A stretch of 64,000 bases of DNA from an uncultured Trueperaceae bacterium (GCA_963815215.1 CAWFFU010000011.1:288001-352000), one strand, 5' to 3'. Positions 1 to 22,947 are shown, counted from the stretch's first letter. The notes: a model not told the origin generated them from the letters alone. A program made the numbers and translations.

Positions 1-201
1 GTACAGATGGTAGGTGTTGGCGAACAGCAGCTGCGTTCCCGTGGCGGCCACCGCGTCCGGCGCCACCCCCTTGACCGCTGCCTGGGTGCCCACCACGACG
101 AACGCTGGCGTGCGCACCGTGCCGTGCGGTGTCTCGAGCGTACCCAGCCGCGCCGCGCCGCGGCGCTGCTGGAGGGTGAAGGTCAGGGCATGCGTATCCA
201 T
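1..201 (-). CDS. tgt: tRNA-guanine transglycosylase, N-terminal part (runs off window start)
   Basis: Minus-strand translation (absent from the ORF track): MDTHALTFTLQQRRGAARLGTLETPHGTVRTPAFVVVGTQAAVKGVAPDAVAATGTQLLFANTYHLY, carrying the Tgt ARLG..TPHG..TP.F..VGT and NTYHL motifs. Confidence 0.9.
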   Translation of the reverse strand, partial: MDTHALTFTLQQRRGAARLGTLETPHGTVRTPAFVVVGTQAAVKGVAPDAVAATGTQLLFANTYHLY

Positions 202-383
202 GGTGGCGGCCCGCCATCTTACCCGCTTCCCGCCGGCGGCAGCGTTCCGTCAGCCCCACGGCCGAGACGGGACAACGATCCCTCCCGGCACACCGTGACG
301 CCGATGTTAAGCTCCTGTTTGGCGGATTTCACGTGTTCTCACCGACGAGCAGCGTAGTATGCACGTGTCGGGCAGGTCCCGAC

Positions 384-456
384 CTTGGAAGCGATGAAGC
401 CTGTCTCACCACGTGGGCGCTTGAGACGGGTGGAGCGAGTAGCGCAACCGGCCAAG
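384..456 (+). ncRNA. c-di-GMP-II riboswitch aptamer 1
   Basis: P1 CTTGG/CCAAG; GGAAGCGATGAA...GGAGCGAGT kink-turn strands; stem CCTGTCTCA/TGAGACGGG; loop TGGGCGCT pseudoknot with AGCGC; 3' AGTAGCGCAACCGGCC matches the class II consensus AGUAGUGCAACCGAC; candidate -10 TAGTAT at 355-360. Confidence 0.9.
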
Positions 457-573
457 ATGAGTCACCCCTCATCGACAGCCTGACAGTGCCCACGAACGAC
501 CCCTTCCGGGGTCGACCAGGGCGACCACGGTATCCGAGCCCGGTGCATCCGCGCCGCACGCAACGGTCCCGAG

Positions 574-648
574 GCCTTGGACGCGATGAAACCTGTCCTG
601 CACTTGGGCGCTTGGGACAGGTGGAGCGAGTAGCGCAACCGGCCAGGC
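574..648 (+). ncRNA. c-di-GMP-II riboswitch aptamer 2 (tandem copy)
   Basis: P1 (GC)CTTGG/CCAGG(C); GGACGCGATGAA; stem ACCTGTCC/GGACAGGT; loop TTGGGCGCT; identical GGTGGAGCGAGTAGCGCAACCGGCCA 3' half; compensatory stem changes relative to copy 1. Confidence 0.88.
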
Positions 649-712
649 AGGTCCGCAGGTTTGCAGGCTTCCCATCGTCGGTCAGGCGCCCCGATCTCTT
701 CGCGATGCGAGG

Positions 713-1720
713 ATGGCGATGGCGCAGATGAGCAACCAGCCGAGCCAGACACCTACACGGCGCACCCGCCGCCCCGGTCGGCATGCCATGATCGGTTTCT
801 CCGCCATGCTGGCCGCGCTGCTGCTGGCCACCGGCTGTTCGGGCGTGGCCACCGAGCCGCCCCAGGCGGTCACGAACGCCACGGATGTCAGACCGATGTT
901 CGGCGCCTTCACTTACGGCGGCGTCTGGCAGGGCATGCAACCCGTCCACCAGCTCGAGGACCTGCTCGGCCGAAAGCTCGACGTGGTGCACTGGTTCATG
1001 AGCTGGGACACGCCCTATGACGTTGCGCTGGTCGAGTCCGCCATGGCCGGCGGACGCCTGCCGATGATCACCTGGCAGCCCTACCACCAGTCCGTCAGCG
1101 ATATCGCCGCCGGCACCTACGACGACCTCATGCGGAGCTTCGCTCGCGGTGTACGCGCGACGCCCGGCCTCGTCTACGTGCGGCCCTTCCCCGAGATGAA
1201 CGGCGACTGGGAGCCGTGGAACGGGCAGCCCGCCGAGTTCGTGAAGGCGTGGCGTCGCATGGTCGACATCTTCCGCGCAGAAGGCGCCGACAACGTGCGC
1301 TGGGTGTGGTCGCCGAACATCACCGACCAGCCCCGCACGACCGCCAACGCCATGGAGAAGTACTACCCGGGCAGCGCCTACGTCGACGTCCTCGCCCTGG
1401 ACGGCTACAACTGGGGCACGTCGCAGGGCTGGAGCCAGTGGCGTAGCTTCGACCAGATCTTCGCCGAACCCTATGCCCGCATCACCGCTCTGGGCCCCCA
1501 GCCGGTGTGGGTCGCCGAGGTCGCCTCGACCAACAAGGGCGGCGACAAAGCGGCCTGGGTCGCGAACATGCTCAGCAGCACCAAGTTCCCTCGCATCCGC
1601 GCGCTGATCTGGTTCAACGAGAACAGCGACCTGGATTGGCGCCTGGACAATTCGCTGGCCGTCATCCAGGCCGCTCGCGCGAGCCTCACCCCGAGTCTGC
1701 AGACGACCGCCAGCCGCTGA
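713..1720 (+). CDS. Glycoside hydrolase family 26 (beta-mannanase/glucanase-like), probable lipoprotein; start may be 719 or 728
   Basis: RPFPEMNGDW acid/base motif, WVWSPN, YYPG..YVDVLALDGYN, VWVAEVAS nucleophile; Arg-rich N-terminus, hydrophobic stretch and lipobox LLATGC. Confidence 0.88.
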   Translation: MAMAQMSNQPSQTPTRRTRRPGRHAMIGFSAMLAALLLATGCSGVATEPPQAVTNATDVRPMFGAFTYGGVWQGMQPVHQLEDLLGRKLDVVHWFMSWDTPYDVALVESAMAGGRLPMITWQPYHQSVSDIAAGTYDDLMRSFARGVRATPGLVYVRPFPEMNGDWEPWNGQPAEFVKAWRRMVDIFRAEGADNVRWVWSPNITDQPRTTANAMEKYYPGSAYVDVLALDGYNWGTSQGWSQWRSFDQIFAEPYARITALGPQPVWVAEVASTNKGGDKAAWVANMLSSTKFPRIRALIWFNENSDLDWRLDNSLAVIQAARASLTPSLQTTASR

Positions 1721-1787: not shown

Positions 1788-4595
1788 TCAGCGCGCGCTG
1801 GCCGTGTCCGTCGGCGCCACGACGGCGCGCGAGCCCCCCGAGAACAACCGCTGCTGGACCGCGCTGTACACCGCCCCGTCCTCGACCCCGTTCGCCGCCA
1901 CGATGGCGCTGCTGCGCCGGTACGCGGCGGCGAGGTCGAGCTTGCCGGAGGCGACCTCGCCGCTCAACGCCACCAGCTGCCGTTCGGGTGCGGCGAGCGA
2001 CGAAGGATCGACCCGGTAGGCGGCGTAGGCGCTGCCGAGTGCGTCGGCCAACGGGCCGAGGTGCACCATGGCCTCCACCGGCCCGCGCAGTTTCGGCGCG
2101 ACCCGGCCGCTGCGCGTTACGCCGTGCAGCGGATTGATGTACAGAGCGTAGGCGACGGCGTCGTCGGTGACGACCGGGCGCGCCAGCGACCACGCCAGTT
2201 TCGCCGCGCCGGCACAGACCGAGAAGTCGGGATCGAAGACGTTGAACGAGCCGCTCAGCAGGTGGGGATTGTACAGCGCGGAGTTCGGATCCTCCGAGAC
2301 CGCCCGCAGCAGCGTCAGCGCGTCGGACGTCATCTGCGACAGTCCCTTGTCGCCGGTCTCCCCTACCGCCAGGGGGTCGAGGTAGGACTCGTTGATCAGG
2401 ACCTGCAGCATGAGGCGCACCGGAACGTCGTAGGTCGAAGCCGCCTGCTCGATGTAGGGCTCGATCGGGGCGAGCCGGCCCAGCATGAGCAGCTCGAACG
2501 GGTCCAGTGGCTGGTAGGCGCCGGCCGAGCCCGGGAGCGGCTGCGGGGCGGCGCTGGGATGCCGTAGGAAGACCGGCCGGCAGTACGCGGACAGCGTGGA
2601 GATCGGCTCGAGCACGGACCCGGTGCCGGAGCCGGCCCTGGAGCCGGCCGCGGAGCCAGTCGCGGACGGCGCGAGAGCGGTCCGTGTCGCGGCACTGTCG
2701 GTCCGGGAGATCACGGCGAAGGCCCCGGGGGCCGCCAGCGCGACCGGCCCTGCCAGCGTGACGCGGACCTGTGGCGCCGTCAGCGACAGCGCAGGGAGCG
2801 GCGAAGAGCGGAGCGGCAGGGCGATCGAAGCCTGGAGCAGCGGGATGGTGGCGCTTTGGGAGCCCGGGCTCAGCAACGCGGGAGCCACCTGCGCGACCGG
2901 CAGCGGCAGGTCGTCGTGTTGCGCCATGTCGAGCGGGGTCGTGCGAGCCAGCAGCCGCTCGATCGCGAGCTGGTCGGCACCCGATGCGGGCGCCAGCGCC
3001 AGGATGGCCACGAACACCACCGACAGGGCGGCGACGATGGAGGCCGCCGTTCCAACGGTGCGGCCGTCGACACCCCGCGTGGTGGGCCGCTCCCACGCCA
3101 CGCCCTGCGTGCGCGTGACCACGCTGCGGCTCGCCGCGCGGCGTTCGGCCAGGAACGCCGGGATCACGCTGGTGGCCGCCGCCACGAAGCTGACGGGGTT
3201 GGCCACCTTGAGAACCATATAGGGCAACCACGTGCTGACCAGCCGTCGACCCGCGAAGCGCGCCGCGGAGCCGCGCCGCCGGCGACCGTCACGCGCCTGC
3301 ACGTAGAAGCCCGAGAAGGTCATGAGGCCGGTCGCTGCCAGGTCCAGCCCGAACCAGGTGGCCAGGATGCGCACCAGGTCGGTCGTTCCGATCGTTCCCG
3401 CCGCGGTGAGGGCCAGCATCACCGGCAGCAGCAGTAGCAACAGCAACCCCAACAGGTTCTCGACTTGCGCAGCCCACAGCGTGAAGCGCACGTTGGAGCT
3501 CATCACCCTGTCGCCCGGATCCCCCAGGACCCGTTTCAGGGCGTTCTGGATGCCGCCGCCGTTCCAGCGTTCGATCTGCCGCAGGTAGCCGCCGACGTGC
3601 GCGGGATCCTCGGTGTACATCAGCGCGTCGCCCACGAAGCGGGCGTTCCCGCCGTGACGAAGCTCGATCACGTCGTGGCGGTCGAAGGCCTCCTCGAAGG
3701 GCAGCTCGGCGCCGTCCACGACGATCCGGAAGCCGCGCCGGGTGAGCTCGGCGGGCGTCAGGCGCTCGTCGTGCCGCGGCACTCGCTGCGCCGTGAGCGT
3801 CAGGTCGTGGTCCTCGGTCTGGGTGTCGGGCGGCATGGGCAGGACGTTGCGCCGCACCACGAAGCCGCAGCCGACCACCGTGTACAGGCGGCTGGCCCCC
3901 CACAGGCCGCCGTCACCCAGCATGCCGGCCTGGCCCCGGCGCAGCACGGCGGCGAAGGCGTACTCGGCCGAGCGACCGGCCGCGATGAAGCGCTGGGTCG
4001 GCCCGGCCCCCTCAGGAACGTAGGACATCACGGACCCGGACTGGAGGGCGTAGTCCTCGAGCACGGGCCGGCCGGCGATCCAACGCAGGCGGTAGAAGTT
4101 CCTCTCGAGCGCGGCGACGAACTCCGGATCGAAGACCGTGTCGCCGTCCACCAGAAGCACGCGCTCGGAACTCAGGATGCGGCTCGCCACCAGGTTGTTG
4201 ATCGCCTCGGACTTGGCCGTCCGCTGCGCGTACACCACCACCGCCACGCCCATGGCGTGATCGTGGTGGCTCCAGCGTTCGAGCGTGGCGCTCAGCCCCG
4301 GGGCACGGCCGGCCGAGTCCAGCTCGAACCCGTGCCCGACCAGGGTCGCGCCGACGACCTCGTGGGTGCGGTCGGTCCCGCCGTTGATGCTGACGATGAG
4401 TTCGTCGGGCAGGCGGCGCTGCGACAGCAGCGACGTCAGCGCCCGCCTCGCTCCGACCTCTTCGTTGTACATCGGCGAGACGACCGCCAGCCTGTCGGGT
4501 CCGCGGACGGGCAGACTACGGTCAGGGACCGTACTGAGCGCTGCGTTGAGAAGGGTTGTGGGCATCCCGGACAGGCCGAAGAAGTTGGGCATCAC
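1788..4595 (-). CDS. Processive glycosyltransferase family 2 fused to a C-terminal SLT/lysozyme-like transglycosylase domain
   Basis: PMYNEE, INGGTD, K..A.N, VDGDT (DxD), TED and RQIERW (QxxRW) motifs, several TM helices, Ala/Pro/Ser linker, then IEQAASTYDVPVRLMLQVLINESYLDPLAVGETGDKGLSQM...FDPDFSVCAGAAKL (SLT ES..GL.Q signature). Confidence 0.85.
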   Translation of the reverse strand: MMPNFFGLSGMPTTLLNAALSTVPDRSLPVRGPDRLAVVSPMYNEEVGARRALTSLLSQRRLPDELIVSINGGTDRTHEVVGATLVGHGFELDSAGRAPGLSATLERWSHHDHAMGVAVVVYAQRTAKSEAINNLVASRILSSERVLLVDGDTVFDPEFVAALERNFYRLRWIAGRPVLEDYALQSGSVMSYVPEGAGPTQRFIAAGRSAEYAFAAVLRRGQAGMLGDGGLWGASRLYTVVGCGFVVRRNVLPMPPDTQTEDHDLTLTAQRVPRHDERLTPAELTRRGFRIVVDGAELPFEEAFDRHDVIELRHGGNARFVGDALMYTEDPAHVGGYLRQIERWNGGGIQNALKRVLGDPGDRVMSSNVRFTLWAAQVENLLGLLLLLLLPVMLALTAAGTIGTTDLVRILATWFGLDLAATGLMTFSGFYVQARDGRRRRGSAARFAGRRLVSTWLPYMVLKVANPVSFVAAATSVIPAFLAERRAASRSVVTRTQGVAWERPTTRGVDGRTVGTAASIVAALSVVFVAILALAPASGADQLAIERLLARTTPLDMAQHDDLPLPVAQVAPALLSPGSQSATIPLLQASIALPLRSSPLPALSLTAPQVRVTLAGPVALAAPGAFAVISRTDSAATRTALAPSATGSAAGSRAGSGTGSVLEPISTLSAYCRPVFLRHPSAAPQPLPGSAGAYQPLDPFELLMLGRLAPIEPYIEQAASTYDVPVRLMLQVLINESYLDPLAVGETGDKGLSQMTSDALTLLRAVSEDPNSALYNPHLLSGSFNVFDPDFSVCAGAAKLAWSLARPVVTDDAVAYALYINPLHGVTRSGRVAPKLRGPVEAMVHLGPLADALGSAYAAYRVDPSSLAAPERQLVALSGEVASGKLDLAAAYRRSSAIVAANGVEDGAVYSAVQQRLFSGGSRAVVAPTDTASAR

Positions 4596-4796: not shown

Positions 4797-5420
4797 ATGG
4801 CACTTCACATCAGCGGTAAGCTCGTGGCCGTAGGCCTCGTCCTGGCCGCACTGATCACCGCATTCAGCGCCCCCCGCAGCGTACAGAACGCGGGTGTCGC
4901 CTTGACCCTCACCCCAACCGCCACGGTCCTCACCACGCCTGCCTCGCCGGCGCCGCTGCGGGCCGGGTCGGTCGGGCCCGAGGCCAATCCTGTGTTCACG
5001 CTGCGGGCCACGGGTTACAACTCGATGGTCGACCAGACCGACGCCACCCCGTTCATCACCTCGACTGGACAGCGTACCCGTTTCGGGATCATCGCGGTGA
5101 GCCCTGACCTACTGGCCCACGCCCTGCCGTACGGCAGCCTGGTGCGCATCCGGGACCTCGGCAACTACTACACCGGCCGCGGCTACGGGCACTACCAGAG
5201 CCTGCTGGACGGCCAGGGACTGTTCATCGTCGAGGACACCATGCACTACCGCAAGCGCGATCAGATCGACATCTGGTTCAGCGACTACGCCAGCGCGGTG
5301 AACTGGGGCATGCGCAAGGTGAGCGTCGAGGTCATCCGTTATGGGCGCAACGGCCCCAAACTCGAACCCTCGCGTGCCAACGACTTCAGCGGGACACCGC
5401 AACTGTTCGCCTCGCGCTGA
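4797..5420 (+). CDS. Secreted 3D-domain (MltA/Sps-like) cell-wall protein
   Basis: SD GGGAGG before ATG 4797; signal peptide; ATGYNS..QTD.TPFITSTG, IIAVSPDLL, LPYGS, IVEDT, IDIW (three-Asp 3D motif). Confidence 0.85.
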   Translation: MALHISGKLVAVGLVLAALITAFSAPRSVQNAGVALTLTPTATVLTTPASPAPLRAGSVGPEANPVFTLRATGYNSMVDQTDATPFITSTGQRTRFGIIAVSPDLLAHALPYGSLVRIRDLGNYYTGRGYGHYQSLLDGQGLFIVEDTMHYRKRDQIDIWFSDYASAVNWGMRKVSVEVIRYGRNGPKLEPSRANDFSGTPQLFASR

Positions 5421-5561: not shown

Positions 5562-6743
5562 GTGCGGAGCCTCGTACCGTACCTGGCGTGGCGGCACGTC
5601 CGCCGACGCGGCCTGCAATCCGGCCTCACCGTGGTCGGCGTGGCGGTCGGCGTCATGGTCCTGATCGTCGCGCTGTCGCTGACCAACGGCTTCGTGGACG
5701 AGCTGATCCGCAGCACCCTGAAGGCCACCCCCATGCTCACGCTCGAGAGCTACATCTCCGGGCAGACGGTGCCGAACGACCCCGCGGTCGGCCGGGCCCT
5801 GGCGGGTCGCCCGTCGGTCACTGCGGTCGCCCCCTTCCTCAGCACCCAGGCGCTCATCGCGCGGCGCGCCAGCGCCAGCCTCGGGATCACCGCCCGGCAG
5901 GGCTACACCCAGATCGTGGGCATCGACCCGGCGCAGGAGACGCAAGTCCTCGACCTGCCGATCCTCCAGAAGCAGGCGACGGCCCTGGCCCGGCGGGACG
6001 GCATCGTGCTGGGCGCCTCGCTGGCGCAGCAGCTCGGCGTGATCGCAGGGGACAAGGTGGTGCTGCGCGACATCACGGGCCACACCGCCGAGCTCACCGT
6101 GGCAGGCACCTTCCGCGTCGGCAACGAGCTCATCGACGGGATCGCGTCGTACATGTCGCTGGCCAACCTGCAGCAGTACATGCACGTGGGGGACCGGATC
6201 AGCGGCTACCACTTGCGACTGGCCGACCCGCAGCGCGCTTCGGCGCTCGGTGTGACGCTCGGCGACGCCTTCGGCCTGCGCCCGGTCTCCTGGGACAGCC
6301 TGTTCGCCAACCTCATCAGCCAGCTCCGCCTGCAGAAGGCGGTCATCGCGGTGGTGGTGTTCCTCATCGTCCTTGTCGCCGCCATGGGGATCGCCAATAT
6401 CCTGGTGTTGACGGTATCGGAGAAGACCGAAGAGATCGCCATCCTGCGGGCGCTGGGCGCTACCGAGCGGCAGGTGCTGGCCGTCTTCACGCTGGAGGGG
6501 CTGCTGCTCGGCGCCACCGGCACGCTCCTGGGAGCCCTCCTCGGGCTGGGCGTGAGCACCTACTTCCGTCTGCAGCCCTACCCCCTGCCGGGCAACCTCT
6601 ACTTCATCACCCAGCTCCCCGTGCAGCTCCAGCCGACCGACGTGCTGTGGGTATGCGCGCTGTCGATCGGCACCAGCGTGCTCGCCGGGCTCTTCCCCGC
6701 GCGGCGCGCGGCCAACCTCGACCCCGTCGACGTCCTGCGCTGA
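5562..6743 (+). CDS. Lipoprotein-releasing ABC transporter permease (LolC/E, FtsX family)
   Basis: GVAVGVMVLIVALSLTNGF, EKTEEIAILRALGA, PARRAANLDPVDVLR motifs. Confidence 0.88.
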   Translation: MRSLVPYLAWRHVRRRGLQSGLTVVGVAVGVMVLIVALSLTNGFVDELIRSTLKATPMLTLESYISGQTVPNDPAVGRALAGRPSVTAVAPFLSTQALIARRASASLGITARQGYTQIVGIDPAQETQVLDLPILQKQATALARRDGIVLGASLAQQLGVIAGDKVVLRDITGHTAELTVAGTFRVGNELIDGIASYMSLANLQQYMHVGDRISGYHLRLADPQRASALGVTLGDAFGLRPVSWDSLFANLISQLRLQKAVIAVVVFLIVLVAAMGIANILVLTVSEKTEEIAILRALGATERQVLAVFTLEGLLLGATGTLLGALLGLGVSTYFRLQPYPLPGNLYFITQLPVQLQPTDVLWVCALSIGTSVLAGLFPARRAANLDPVDVLR

Positions 6744-7457: not shown

Positions 7458-7535
<78 letters not shown>

Positions 7536-12027: not shown

Positions 12028-12101
12028 GGCTCGGCGGGTAGGATTCGAACCTACGACCAATCGGTTAACAGCCGACCGCTCTACCACTGAGCTACCGCCG
12101 A
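12027..12101 (-). tRNA. tRNA-Asn(GTT)
   Basis: Reverse complement TCGGCGGTAGCTCAGTGGTAGAGCGGTCGGCTGTTAACCGATTGGTCGTAGGTTCGAATCCTACCCGCCGAGCCA. Confidence 0.97.
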
Positions 12102-22870: not shown

Positions 22871-22947
22871 GCGCCCGTAGCTCAGCCGGATAGAGCGTTC
22901 GCCTCCGGAGCGAAAGGTCACAGGTTCGAATCCTGTCGGGCGCACCA
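22871..22947 (+). tRNA. tRNA-Arg(CCG)
   Basis: GCGCCCG-TAGCTCAG...TTCGC-CTCCGGA-GCGAA...GGTTCGAATCC...CGGGCGC-ACCA. Confidence 0.97.

Follow-up and report, generated by a model that had tools for sequence, protein, structure and literature searches.

The window is a 64,000-nucleotide stretch of DNA (GCA_963815215.1 CAWFFU010000011.1:288001-352000) from an uncultured member of the Trueperaceae (Deinococcota), whose assembly comprises 3.3 Mb in 14 contigs at approximately 70% G+C. Near its 5' end are two predicted aptamers of the class II cyclic di-GMP (c-di-GMP) riboswitch. Both are located within a 516-nucleotide gap between two divergent genes, tgt and a gene for a glycoside hydrolase of family 26 (GH26). 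The tgt gene, which encodes queuine tRNA-ribosyltransferase (Pfam TGT, E 2.2e-123), is represented by its 5' end on the minus strand (1..201, with the start of the open reading frame at 201); it bounds the intergenic region (202-718) and lies outside the switch. The GH26 gene (719..1720) is on the plus strand, as are all RNA elements described below, and is the candidate regulated gene.

The whole window was scanned with Rfam at gathering cut-offs, which is 53.5 bits for the c-di-GMP-II model (RF01786). Exactly two matches exceed it, namely aptamer 1 at 378..462 (64.4 bits, E 4.4e-12) and aptamer 2 at 573..653 (71.0 bits, E 5.7e-14), as an initial annotation, made by inspection of the sequence, had anticipated. 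Both span the full model (positions 1-84 of 84), and their starts are 195 nucleotides apart, close to the 190 that had been estimated. A laxer scan of positions 200-800 (E<=1) returned only these two RF01786 matches and no further RNA family. The P1 stem of aptamer 1 comprises only 5 base pairs (384-388 with 452-456). The pseudoknots pair 417-421 with 441-445 in aptamer 1 and 608-612 with 632-636 in aptamer 2, and both have the non-clostridial form GCGCU/AGCGC that was initially described, in place of the GCAC/GUGC of the Rfam consensus. Of the 34 upper-case consensus positions, 29 are matched by aptamer 1 and 30 by aptamer 2, and in each aptamer two of the mismatches constitute this compensated pseudoknot pair. 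Alignment of the two units (375-462 and 565-653) gives 90 columns, of which 73 are identical. Compensatory stem changes between them had also been proposed, and in the RF01786 alignment P2 contains one double change along with two one-sided changes.

Covariation was evaluated in 57 of roughly 130 available aptamers, with both window copies included. Seven are from the source genome, 34 are from 17 of the 20 tandem loci in its relatives (three near-duplicate loci being omitted), and 16 are from 8 of 25 further tandem GH26 loci. Consensus pairs are paired in 93.2% of cells, compared with 75.3% in shuffled data, and none of 500 shuffles reached as high a value. Double-sided changes occur in 17 of 22 pairs, including all 8 pairs of P2, and compensatory change maintains P1 and the short inner helix as well as P2. 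The pseudoknot is 99.6% paired, with double changes in three of its five pairs, and in 12 of the 57 aptamers it takes the form GCAUC/GAUGC, which is found at the second position in both of the other leader types described below. Model matches and covariation together indicate that both window copies are almost certainly genuine class II c-di-GMP aptamers.

Promoter and flank statistics were gathered from 34 GH26-type tandem leaders. A TANNNT motif resembling a -10 element is found 10-45 nucleotides upstream of aptamer 1 in all 34, and upstream of aptamer 2 in two. The extended form TGNTANNNT precedes aptamer 1 in 18 leaders and aptamer 2 in none. Because a -10-like motif occurs before aptamer 1 but almost never before aptamer 2, the two aptamers likely belong to one transcript, in agreement with the initial proposal of two near-complete aptamers in a single 5' leader. 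In the window, the corresponding hexamer is TAGTAT at 355..360, which is the probable promoter of the leader. A search for sequenced RNA covering positions 200-2200 found no run. A generic sigma-70 promoter scan of positions 1-2500 found nothing, and likewise found none in the leader of the doublet on contig C8.

Given the location of TAGTAT, transcription is expected to start near an extra hairpin, P0 (367..383; 367-372 paired with 378-383; -9.2 kcal/mol, z -1.5), which abuts the 5' strand of P1 in aptamer 1. A hairpin of at least 5 base pairs ending beside P1 is present in 32 of the 34 leaders, with differing sequences; such flanking hairpins were counted per sequence, as registers shift between the rows of the 32-row MAFFT alignment. 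The 3' arm of P0 holds the first of two copies of GGTCCCGA, which are found at 375-382 and 565-572. The initial annotation had read the presence of this octamer before each aptamer as the mark of a duplication. It does precede both, and a duplication is supported, but at the first copy it belongs to the conserved P0 hairpin. The second copy (565..572, just 5' of aptamer 2) has no complementary 5' arm that we could find, and among 23 tandem leaders compared it is present only in the window and in the closest relative (G008:C79). Moreover, the octamer is not rare, with four copies in the window compared with 5.0 expected in DNA of 70% G+C.

The duplication is old and family-wide, and not local. 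Among 16 GH26-type leaders, the nearest neighbour of 30 of 32 aptamers is the aptamer at the same position, first or second, in another leader, and aptamers 1 and 2 are accordingly separate orthologous lineages, older than the spread of these bacteria. Similarity between the two aptamers of one leader is 0.87 in the window; among the 15 others, one leader also reaches 0.87 and the rest fall at 0.70-0.86. The higher likeness of the window pair could reflect local homogenisation.

Class II aptamers are common in this group of bacteria, with RF01786 matches in 33 of 41 related genomes. The source genome has seven, of which six form three same-strand doublets and one is single. The doublets are at the window locus and on contigs C8 and C3, and each precedes a different gene. 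The second is at C8:287590-287833 on the minus strand (locus L057) and the third is at C3:1070163-1070436 on the plus strand (locus L058). The genes that follow these encode, respectively, a 587-amino-acid beta-helix/Big_7 protein that is weakly pectate lyase-like and a 184-amino-acid exported protein of no known family, such that two of the three doublets precede secreted polysaccharide-degrading enzymes. Across ten genomes of the genus, 38 of 55 RF01786 matches are in 19 doublets, and doublets are also found in three genomes of other genera.

The association with GH26 was surveyed by scanning 75 loci that encode relatives of the window's protein. Sixty-six of these show at least 46% identity and derive from Trueperaceae or Deinococcales metagenome-assembled genomes, three of them being the same DNA as loci from the relatives' genomes. 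At least 450 nucleotides of upstream sequence are available for 61 (the other five are too short upstream), and 28 of these carry two aptamers, 28 carry one, and 5 carry none. No aptamer was found at the nine distant loci (27-34% identity), which are from haloarchaea, Anaerolineae and others. One of the single-aptamer orthologues (L108:2179-2264) scores as the c-di-GMP-II-GAG variant (RF03169, 47.2 bits) and not as RF01786. At another locus (L062, which is contig C5 of G004), two GH26 paralogues follow one another, and a separate class II doublet accompanies each (595-865 and 2160-2433).

That 28 of the 61 loci make do with one aptamer raises the possibility that only aptamer 2 regulates, and that aptamer 1 is a decaying duplicate or part of a separate short transcript. 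In keeping with this idea, the window shows no recognisable output, for example a U-tailed terminator, behind aptamer 1. However, aptamer 1 retains all helices and the pseudoknot in its full-length match, forms its own conserved lineage across the family, and is accompanied both by conserved flanking hairpins and by the sole promoter-like motif. We therefore consider it very improbable that aptamer 1 is dispensable in this way.

The gene downstream encodes a putative secreted GH26 glucanase. Its product matches the family profile (PF02156) at E 1e-10 and 41.9 bits, compared with a cut-off of 20.2, and its N-terminus carries an export or lipoprotein-like signal. The best relative of solved structure, over residues 68-322, is annotated as "endoglucanase H" (E 4.6e-55), which we take to be the Lic26A beta-1,3-1,4-glucanase domain of Clostridium thermocellum, and the regulated enzyme would thus be one resembling Lic26A. 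In-frame alternative starts exist at ATG 713 and ATG 728, and the likeliest start is inferred to be ATG 719 because it lies five bases after the Shine-Dalgarno (SD) sequence GAGGA (709-713).

Three elements that follow aptamer 1 might form its output. Immediately downstream is a small hairpin at 456..473 (456-461 with 468-473; -7.1 kcal/mol, z -4.1) whose stability is matched by none of 200 shuffles; by a crude criterion, 22 of the 34 leaders have a comparable one. It overlaps a C-rich, G-poor tract at 463..517 (25 C and 12 G; C/G 2.08), which is a candidate rut-like region for loading of Rho. In the first 60 nucleotides after aptamer 1, C exceeds G in all 34 leaders, and it does so by at least 1.5-fold in 23, compared with 3 of 34 after aptamer 2. 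Within this tract begins a two-part hairpin without a U tract (487..523; 487-491 with 519-523 and 497-503 with 508-514; -21.4 kcal/mol, z -3.0), which is likewise matched by none of 200 shuffles and is a candidate output of aptamer 1. Overlapping the base of this hairpin is a 9-nucleotide complement (485..493) of the aptamer 1 pseudoknot loop (413-421), which could form 9 base pairs (p 0.10 relative to shuffles), and the unconstrained fold uses the pairing with the loop.

An intrinsic terminator is not apparent at either aptamer. Scanning positions 1-2500 gave no terminator-like site, where 0.9 are expected by chance, and the C8 leader likewise gave none; it had indeed been stated at the outset that neither copy is followed by a U-tailed terminator. 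The conserved C-rich tract fits the accompanying suggestion of Rho-dependent control, and the source genome contains rho. Rho is thus a possible, though tentative, agent of regulation after aptamer 1. The RNA-binding domain of Rho is encoded at C3:218517-218732 (locus L136) within an open frame of 675 amino acids. Enterobacterial Rho has approximately 420 amino acids, which suggests that the protein of the source genome carries an N-terminal extension.

The linker between the aptamers might alternatively serve communication between them. Under this hypothesis, the tandem is one cooperative device with a single output, resembling the glycine riboswitch or working as a relay, and folding of aptamer 2 would depend, through the linker, on the state of aptamer 1. 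Positions 515-521 are complementary to the 5' strand of P1 in aptamer 2 (574-580) and are paired with it in the unconstrained fold; they can alternatively close the hairpin at 487-523, whose base overlaps the complement of the aptamer 1 loop. However, complementarity between linkers and the P1 5' strand of aptamer 2 is at chance level across the 34 GH26-type tandem leaders (a mean of 5.82 base pairs compared with 5.84; p<=0.05 in none), linker length varies from 33 to 119 nucleotides, and about half of the orthologues have a single aptamer only. Masking of P1 in aptamer 2 by the linker was rejected on the basis of this chance-level complementarity, and a cooperative device of either kind is improbable. 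In 23 of the 34 leaders, a near-palindromic hairpin (CCCGAR, 2-4 nucleotides, UCGGG) is found in the linker just upstream of aptamer 2, for example at L067:2223-2315 and L072:2060-2151. This linker hairpin is absent from the genus of the window, and its strict form is absent from the whole source genome.

The sequence after aptamer 2 leads directly into the translation start region. A hairpin of 7 base pairs (697..713; 697-703 with 707-713) holds the SD sequence. Upstream of it, an anti-start segment (672..680) can pair with 714-722 across the start codon to form 9 base pairs, two of which are G-U. The core of this helix is the complementarity between CCATCGTC (672-679) and GGCGATGG (715-722), which the initial annotation had proposed as a pairing over the start region. 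Taken alone, the helix in the window is within chance expectation (p ~0.09, 300 shuffles). It was therefore compared in nine close leaders, which are the eight GH26-type leaders from the relatives' genomes that contain a GGUCAR landmark, plus L063; G020:C1, which has no such landmark, was omitted. In eight of the nine, at least 7 base pairs to the start region can form with different, co-varying sequences, and one leader has none; in two, the complementarity reaches 11 base pairs (p<=0.007). The proposed pairing thus recurs in related leaders, and it forms in the fold of the window when the aptamer is blocked. Between the anti-start segment and the SD hairpin lies a 9-nucleotide complement (683..691) of the pseudoknot loop of aptamer 2 (606-614), which could form 9 base pairs (p 0.145). 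It overlaps an alternative closing helix of the structure around the ribosome-binding site (RBS), and this 9-mer also ranks first among loop complements in six of nine GH26-type leaders of relatives and in L063. These features suggest that aptamer 2 probably acts at the level of translation.

Whether binding of c-di-GMP would turn expression off or on was considered from the layout of the elements and from folding models. In the window, the helices that would hide the start are built of sequence that follows the aptamer, and no aptamer strand is complementary to the SD sequence or the start region. Such post-aptamer sequestering helices represent the layout of OFF switches. Nested folding agrees with this layout, as the modelled openness of the RBS is 0.18 with the aptamer blocked and 0.32 when it is free. 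After folding of the aptamer, 34 of 54 GH26 leaders have at least 3 nucleotides of the loop complement paired to the RBS window.

Sister leaders were also compared. In the paralogous leader on C3 and 10 orthologues of it, a loop complement of 10-11 base pairs is found in all 11 (p<=0.05 in 7), and it constitutes the 5' arm of a U-tailed terminator that follows the first aptamer and is flagged by the terminator scan. The terminator hairpin is 90.9% paired, with two compensatory pairs, and the alternative pairing with the loop is 97.3% paired. Because the loop complement is in the terminator arm, the unliganded loop would act as an anti-terminator, with ligand tipping the balance towards termination. 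The same layout, with U-rich tails, is seen in three of the four single-aptamer GH26 leaders examined by folding. After the second aptamer, both the C8 and C3 doublets have an 11-nucleotide perfect complement of that aptamer's pseudoknot 3' strand, which precedes a hairpin with the SD sequence in its loop and the AUG in its stem. Among 14 leaders of these two other types, the AUG is modelled as less open with the aptamer blocked in 7 and as more open in none, the start codon being the only part that shifts.

An opposite reading is that the window contains two ON switches, in which c-di-GMP frees the RBS and prevents termination, and the glucanase is made together with the matrix, by analogy with hydrolases that are encoded within exopolysaccharide synthesis loci. 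The characterised class II riboswitches of C. difficile, and indeed every experimentally characterised class II switch that was found, are ON switches, as described in the available part of PMC11477304. An example that models in this way is present in the source genome itself, namely the single class II aptamer at C11:361343-361426 on the minus strand (locus L059), approximately 9.3 kb past the end of the window. The 5' strand of P1 there complements the SD sequence of a gene for an exported protein of 157 amino acids, and the RBS of that gene is unpaired at 0.20 when the aptamer is free and at 0.37 when it is blocked. Furthermore, RBS openness under nested folding has no consistent sign across the 54 GH26 leaders (mean change +0.04), and where it does shift, it leans slightly towards more open when bound, with 11 leaders more open upon blocking the aptamer and 4 less open.

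The neighbourhood of the GH26 gene could also be read in this direction. Convergent with it is a gene on the minus strand (1788..4595), with no riboswitch, that encodes a 935-amino-acid protein in which a family-2 glycosyltransferase (GT2) is fused to a C-terminal SLT domain. The protein is of the multi-pass membrane synthase type, and SLT is a lytic-transglycosylase domain. A relative of this synthase-like gene is found within the available flank of GH26 in 32 of 66 orthologue loci, and the two proteins may be a synthase/glycanase pair for some exopolysaccharide. Against an ON switch are the post-aptamer position of the window's sequestering helices, the placement of the loop complement in the terminator 5' arm of sister leaders, and the lower openness modelled for the window's own RBS when the aptamer is blocked. 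Although the known class II switches set a precedent for activation, these features make an ON switch seem unlikely here, and we modestly favour OFF as the direction of the switch.

Several observations, in addition to those that agree with an ON switch, weigh against the OFF reading or its parts. The SD hairpin is present in every modelled state, and the modelled difference between states is consequently small. The tail that contains it (654-745) is no more stable than shuffled sequences (z +0.29), and neither is the linker as a whole (z -1.15). With a shuffle mean of ~7 base pairs, both 9-base-pair loop complements of the window are within chance expectation, and coupling of the output elements to their aptamers is thus statistically insecure there. 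When the window's post-aptamer sequence is folded, the complement that follows aptamer 2 makes no pairs with the RBS, and it is weakened in the closest relative, G008:C79. Covariation is uninformative about such pairings because the loop is invariant. One of the four single-aptamer GH26 leaders folds in another way, and the consensus terminator scan flagged none of the three "terminators" that had been read by eye in single-aptamer leaders. As for Rho, base composition is the sole feature of the sequence that implicates it. Pairing of the loop with a downstream complement, or "decoy", was set aside as an explanation derived from the window itself, given the chance-level complements and the invariant loop, and is retained only as an inference from the sister leaders.

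With these reservations, we somewhat prefer a model in which 367-718 is the 5' leader of the GH26 gene and operates as a two-stage OFF switch, with control of termination after aptamer 1 and of translation after aptamer 2. An unliganded aptamer would use its pseudoknot loop or its 5' half to pair with downstream sequence, namely 485-493 after aptamer 1, and 683-691 and the 643-680 tail after aptamer 2. Binding of c-di-GMP would lock the native pseudoknot, and the freed segments would then close the hairpin or the start-codon helix. At the aptamer 1 stage, the result might be premature termination by way of the C-rich tract (463-517) and the U-less hairpin (487-523), with Rho as the likeliest termination agent. 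At the aptamer 2 stage, initiation of translation would be controlled. The SD sequence is within its hairpin (697-713), and 672-680 would clamp the start codon (714-722) when ligand-bound aptamer 2 releases the downstream segments. Two OFF stages in series would give a steeper shut-off of the glucanase as c-di-GMP rises.

A broader version of this model, to which we give less credence, would extend it to Trueperaceae doublets in general. In each, the unliganded loop would pair with a "decoy" of its native partner located downstream, and would in this way serve as an anti-terminator or anti-sequestor. The first stage would be Rho-dependent in the window and intrinsic in the paralogous leader, and the second would block translation, with the possible outcome of a steep shut-off of secreted matrix-degrading glycanases at rising c-di-GMP.

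Other features of the window are less directly connected with the leader. An open reading frame of 196 amino acids (4830-5420, plus strand), flanked by the GT2-SLT gene and by a gene for an FtsX/MacB-type permease (5562-6743), matches no Pfam family at E<=0.01. Three tRNA genes are present, at 7458-7531 (plus strand), 12030-12101 (minus strand) and 22871-22944 (plus strand), with Rfam tRNA scores of 62.7-75 bits.

Signalling by c-di-GMP in Deinococcota is seemingly little known. In Trueperaceae, much of the response to c-di-GMP at the level of RNA appears to run through class II doublets, which precede genes for secreted enzymes that degrade polysaccharides and for small exported proteins. If the OFF direction is correct, a riboswitch class that is known for activation would gain a repressing variant, and falling c-di-GMP levels would be tied to degradation of the matrix. 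The GH26 family also provides a natural series, with one or two aptamers and with U-tailed or U-less outputs, in which the effect of a second aptamer on the dose response could be gauged.

The first stage that we propose is reminiscent of Rho-dependent riboswitches such as the Mg2+-responsive mgtA leader and the FMN-responsive ribB leader of enterobacteria. As in those leaders, a C-rich tract of little structure comes after the aptamer in place of an intrinsic terminator, and a role for Rho is suggested here only by composition and by the presence of rho.

The C. difficile class II riboswitches are single transcriptional ON switches, one of which is coupled to a group I ribozyme, according to the available part of PMC11477304. 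On the same partial basis, they share with the window the RF01786 family and a location in leaders of genes with surface or extracellular functions. In contrast, the two window aptamers form a tandem with no U-tailed terminators, and probably act as OFF switches through translation or Rho. Bacillus thuringiensis likewise has a series of complete c-di-GMP riboswitches in one 5' UTR, the triple-tandem Bc3-5 (untranslated region; PMC4759541, available in part). Bc3-5 and the window have this serial arrangement in common, but Bc3-5 is of class I, which is non-homologous to class II, and its host belongs to the Bacillota.

Tandem class II riboswitches have been catalogued by Sherlock et al. 2022 (RNA Biol 19:1059; PMC9481103), the available part of which reports 59 doublets and 9 triplets, describes them as "pseudo-cooperative" with several expression platforms, and finds most of them in Paraclostridium and its relatives, upstream of a gene for a surface-anchor protein (COG4932). 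Like these tandems, the window has two complete class II aptamers in series on one strand, with no gene or promoter found between them. Unlike the cases in that part of the paper, it is from a Trueperaceae genome of 70% G+C, precedes a GH26 glucanase gene, lacks U-tailed terminators, and has an apparent OFF-type layout. A 2025 study (Microb Genom; PMC12452182) finds contiguous c-di-GMP riboswitches to be over-represented in Deinococcota, with Truepera radiovictrix among its genomes; its available text pools class I and class II and gives no Deinococcota loci, genes or mechanism. A literature search for class II riboswitches in Deinococcus, for their expression platforms and for c-di-GMP signalling in Deinococcota returned nothing specific. 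The tandem class II arrangement itself is thus expected and already catalogued, and the window is a well-conserved new example of it. Relative to the texts searched, and although the supplements of PMC9481103 may list Deinococcota doublets, the features that appear to be new are the association with GH26 glucanase genes throughout the family, the very large proportion of doublets in the genus, the additional hairpins that flank the aptamers, the output elements without U tracts, and a possible OFF logic.

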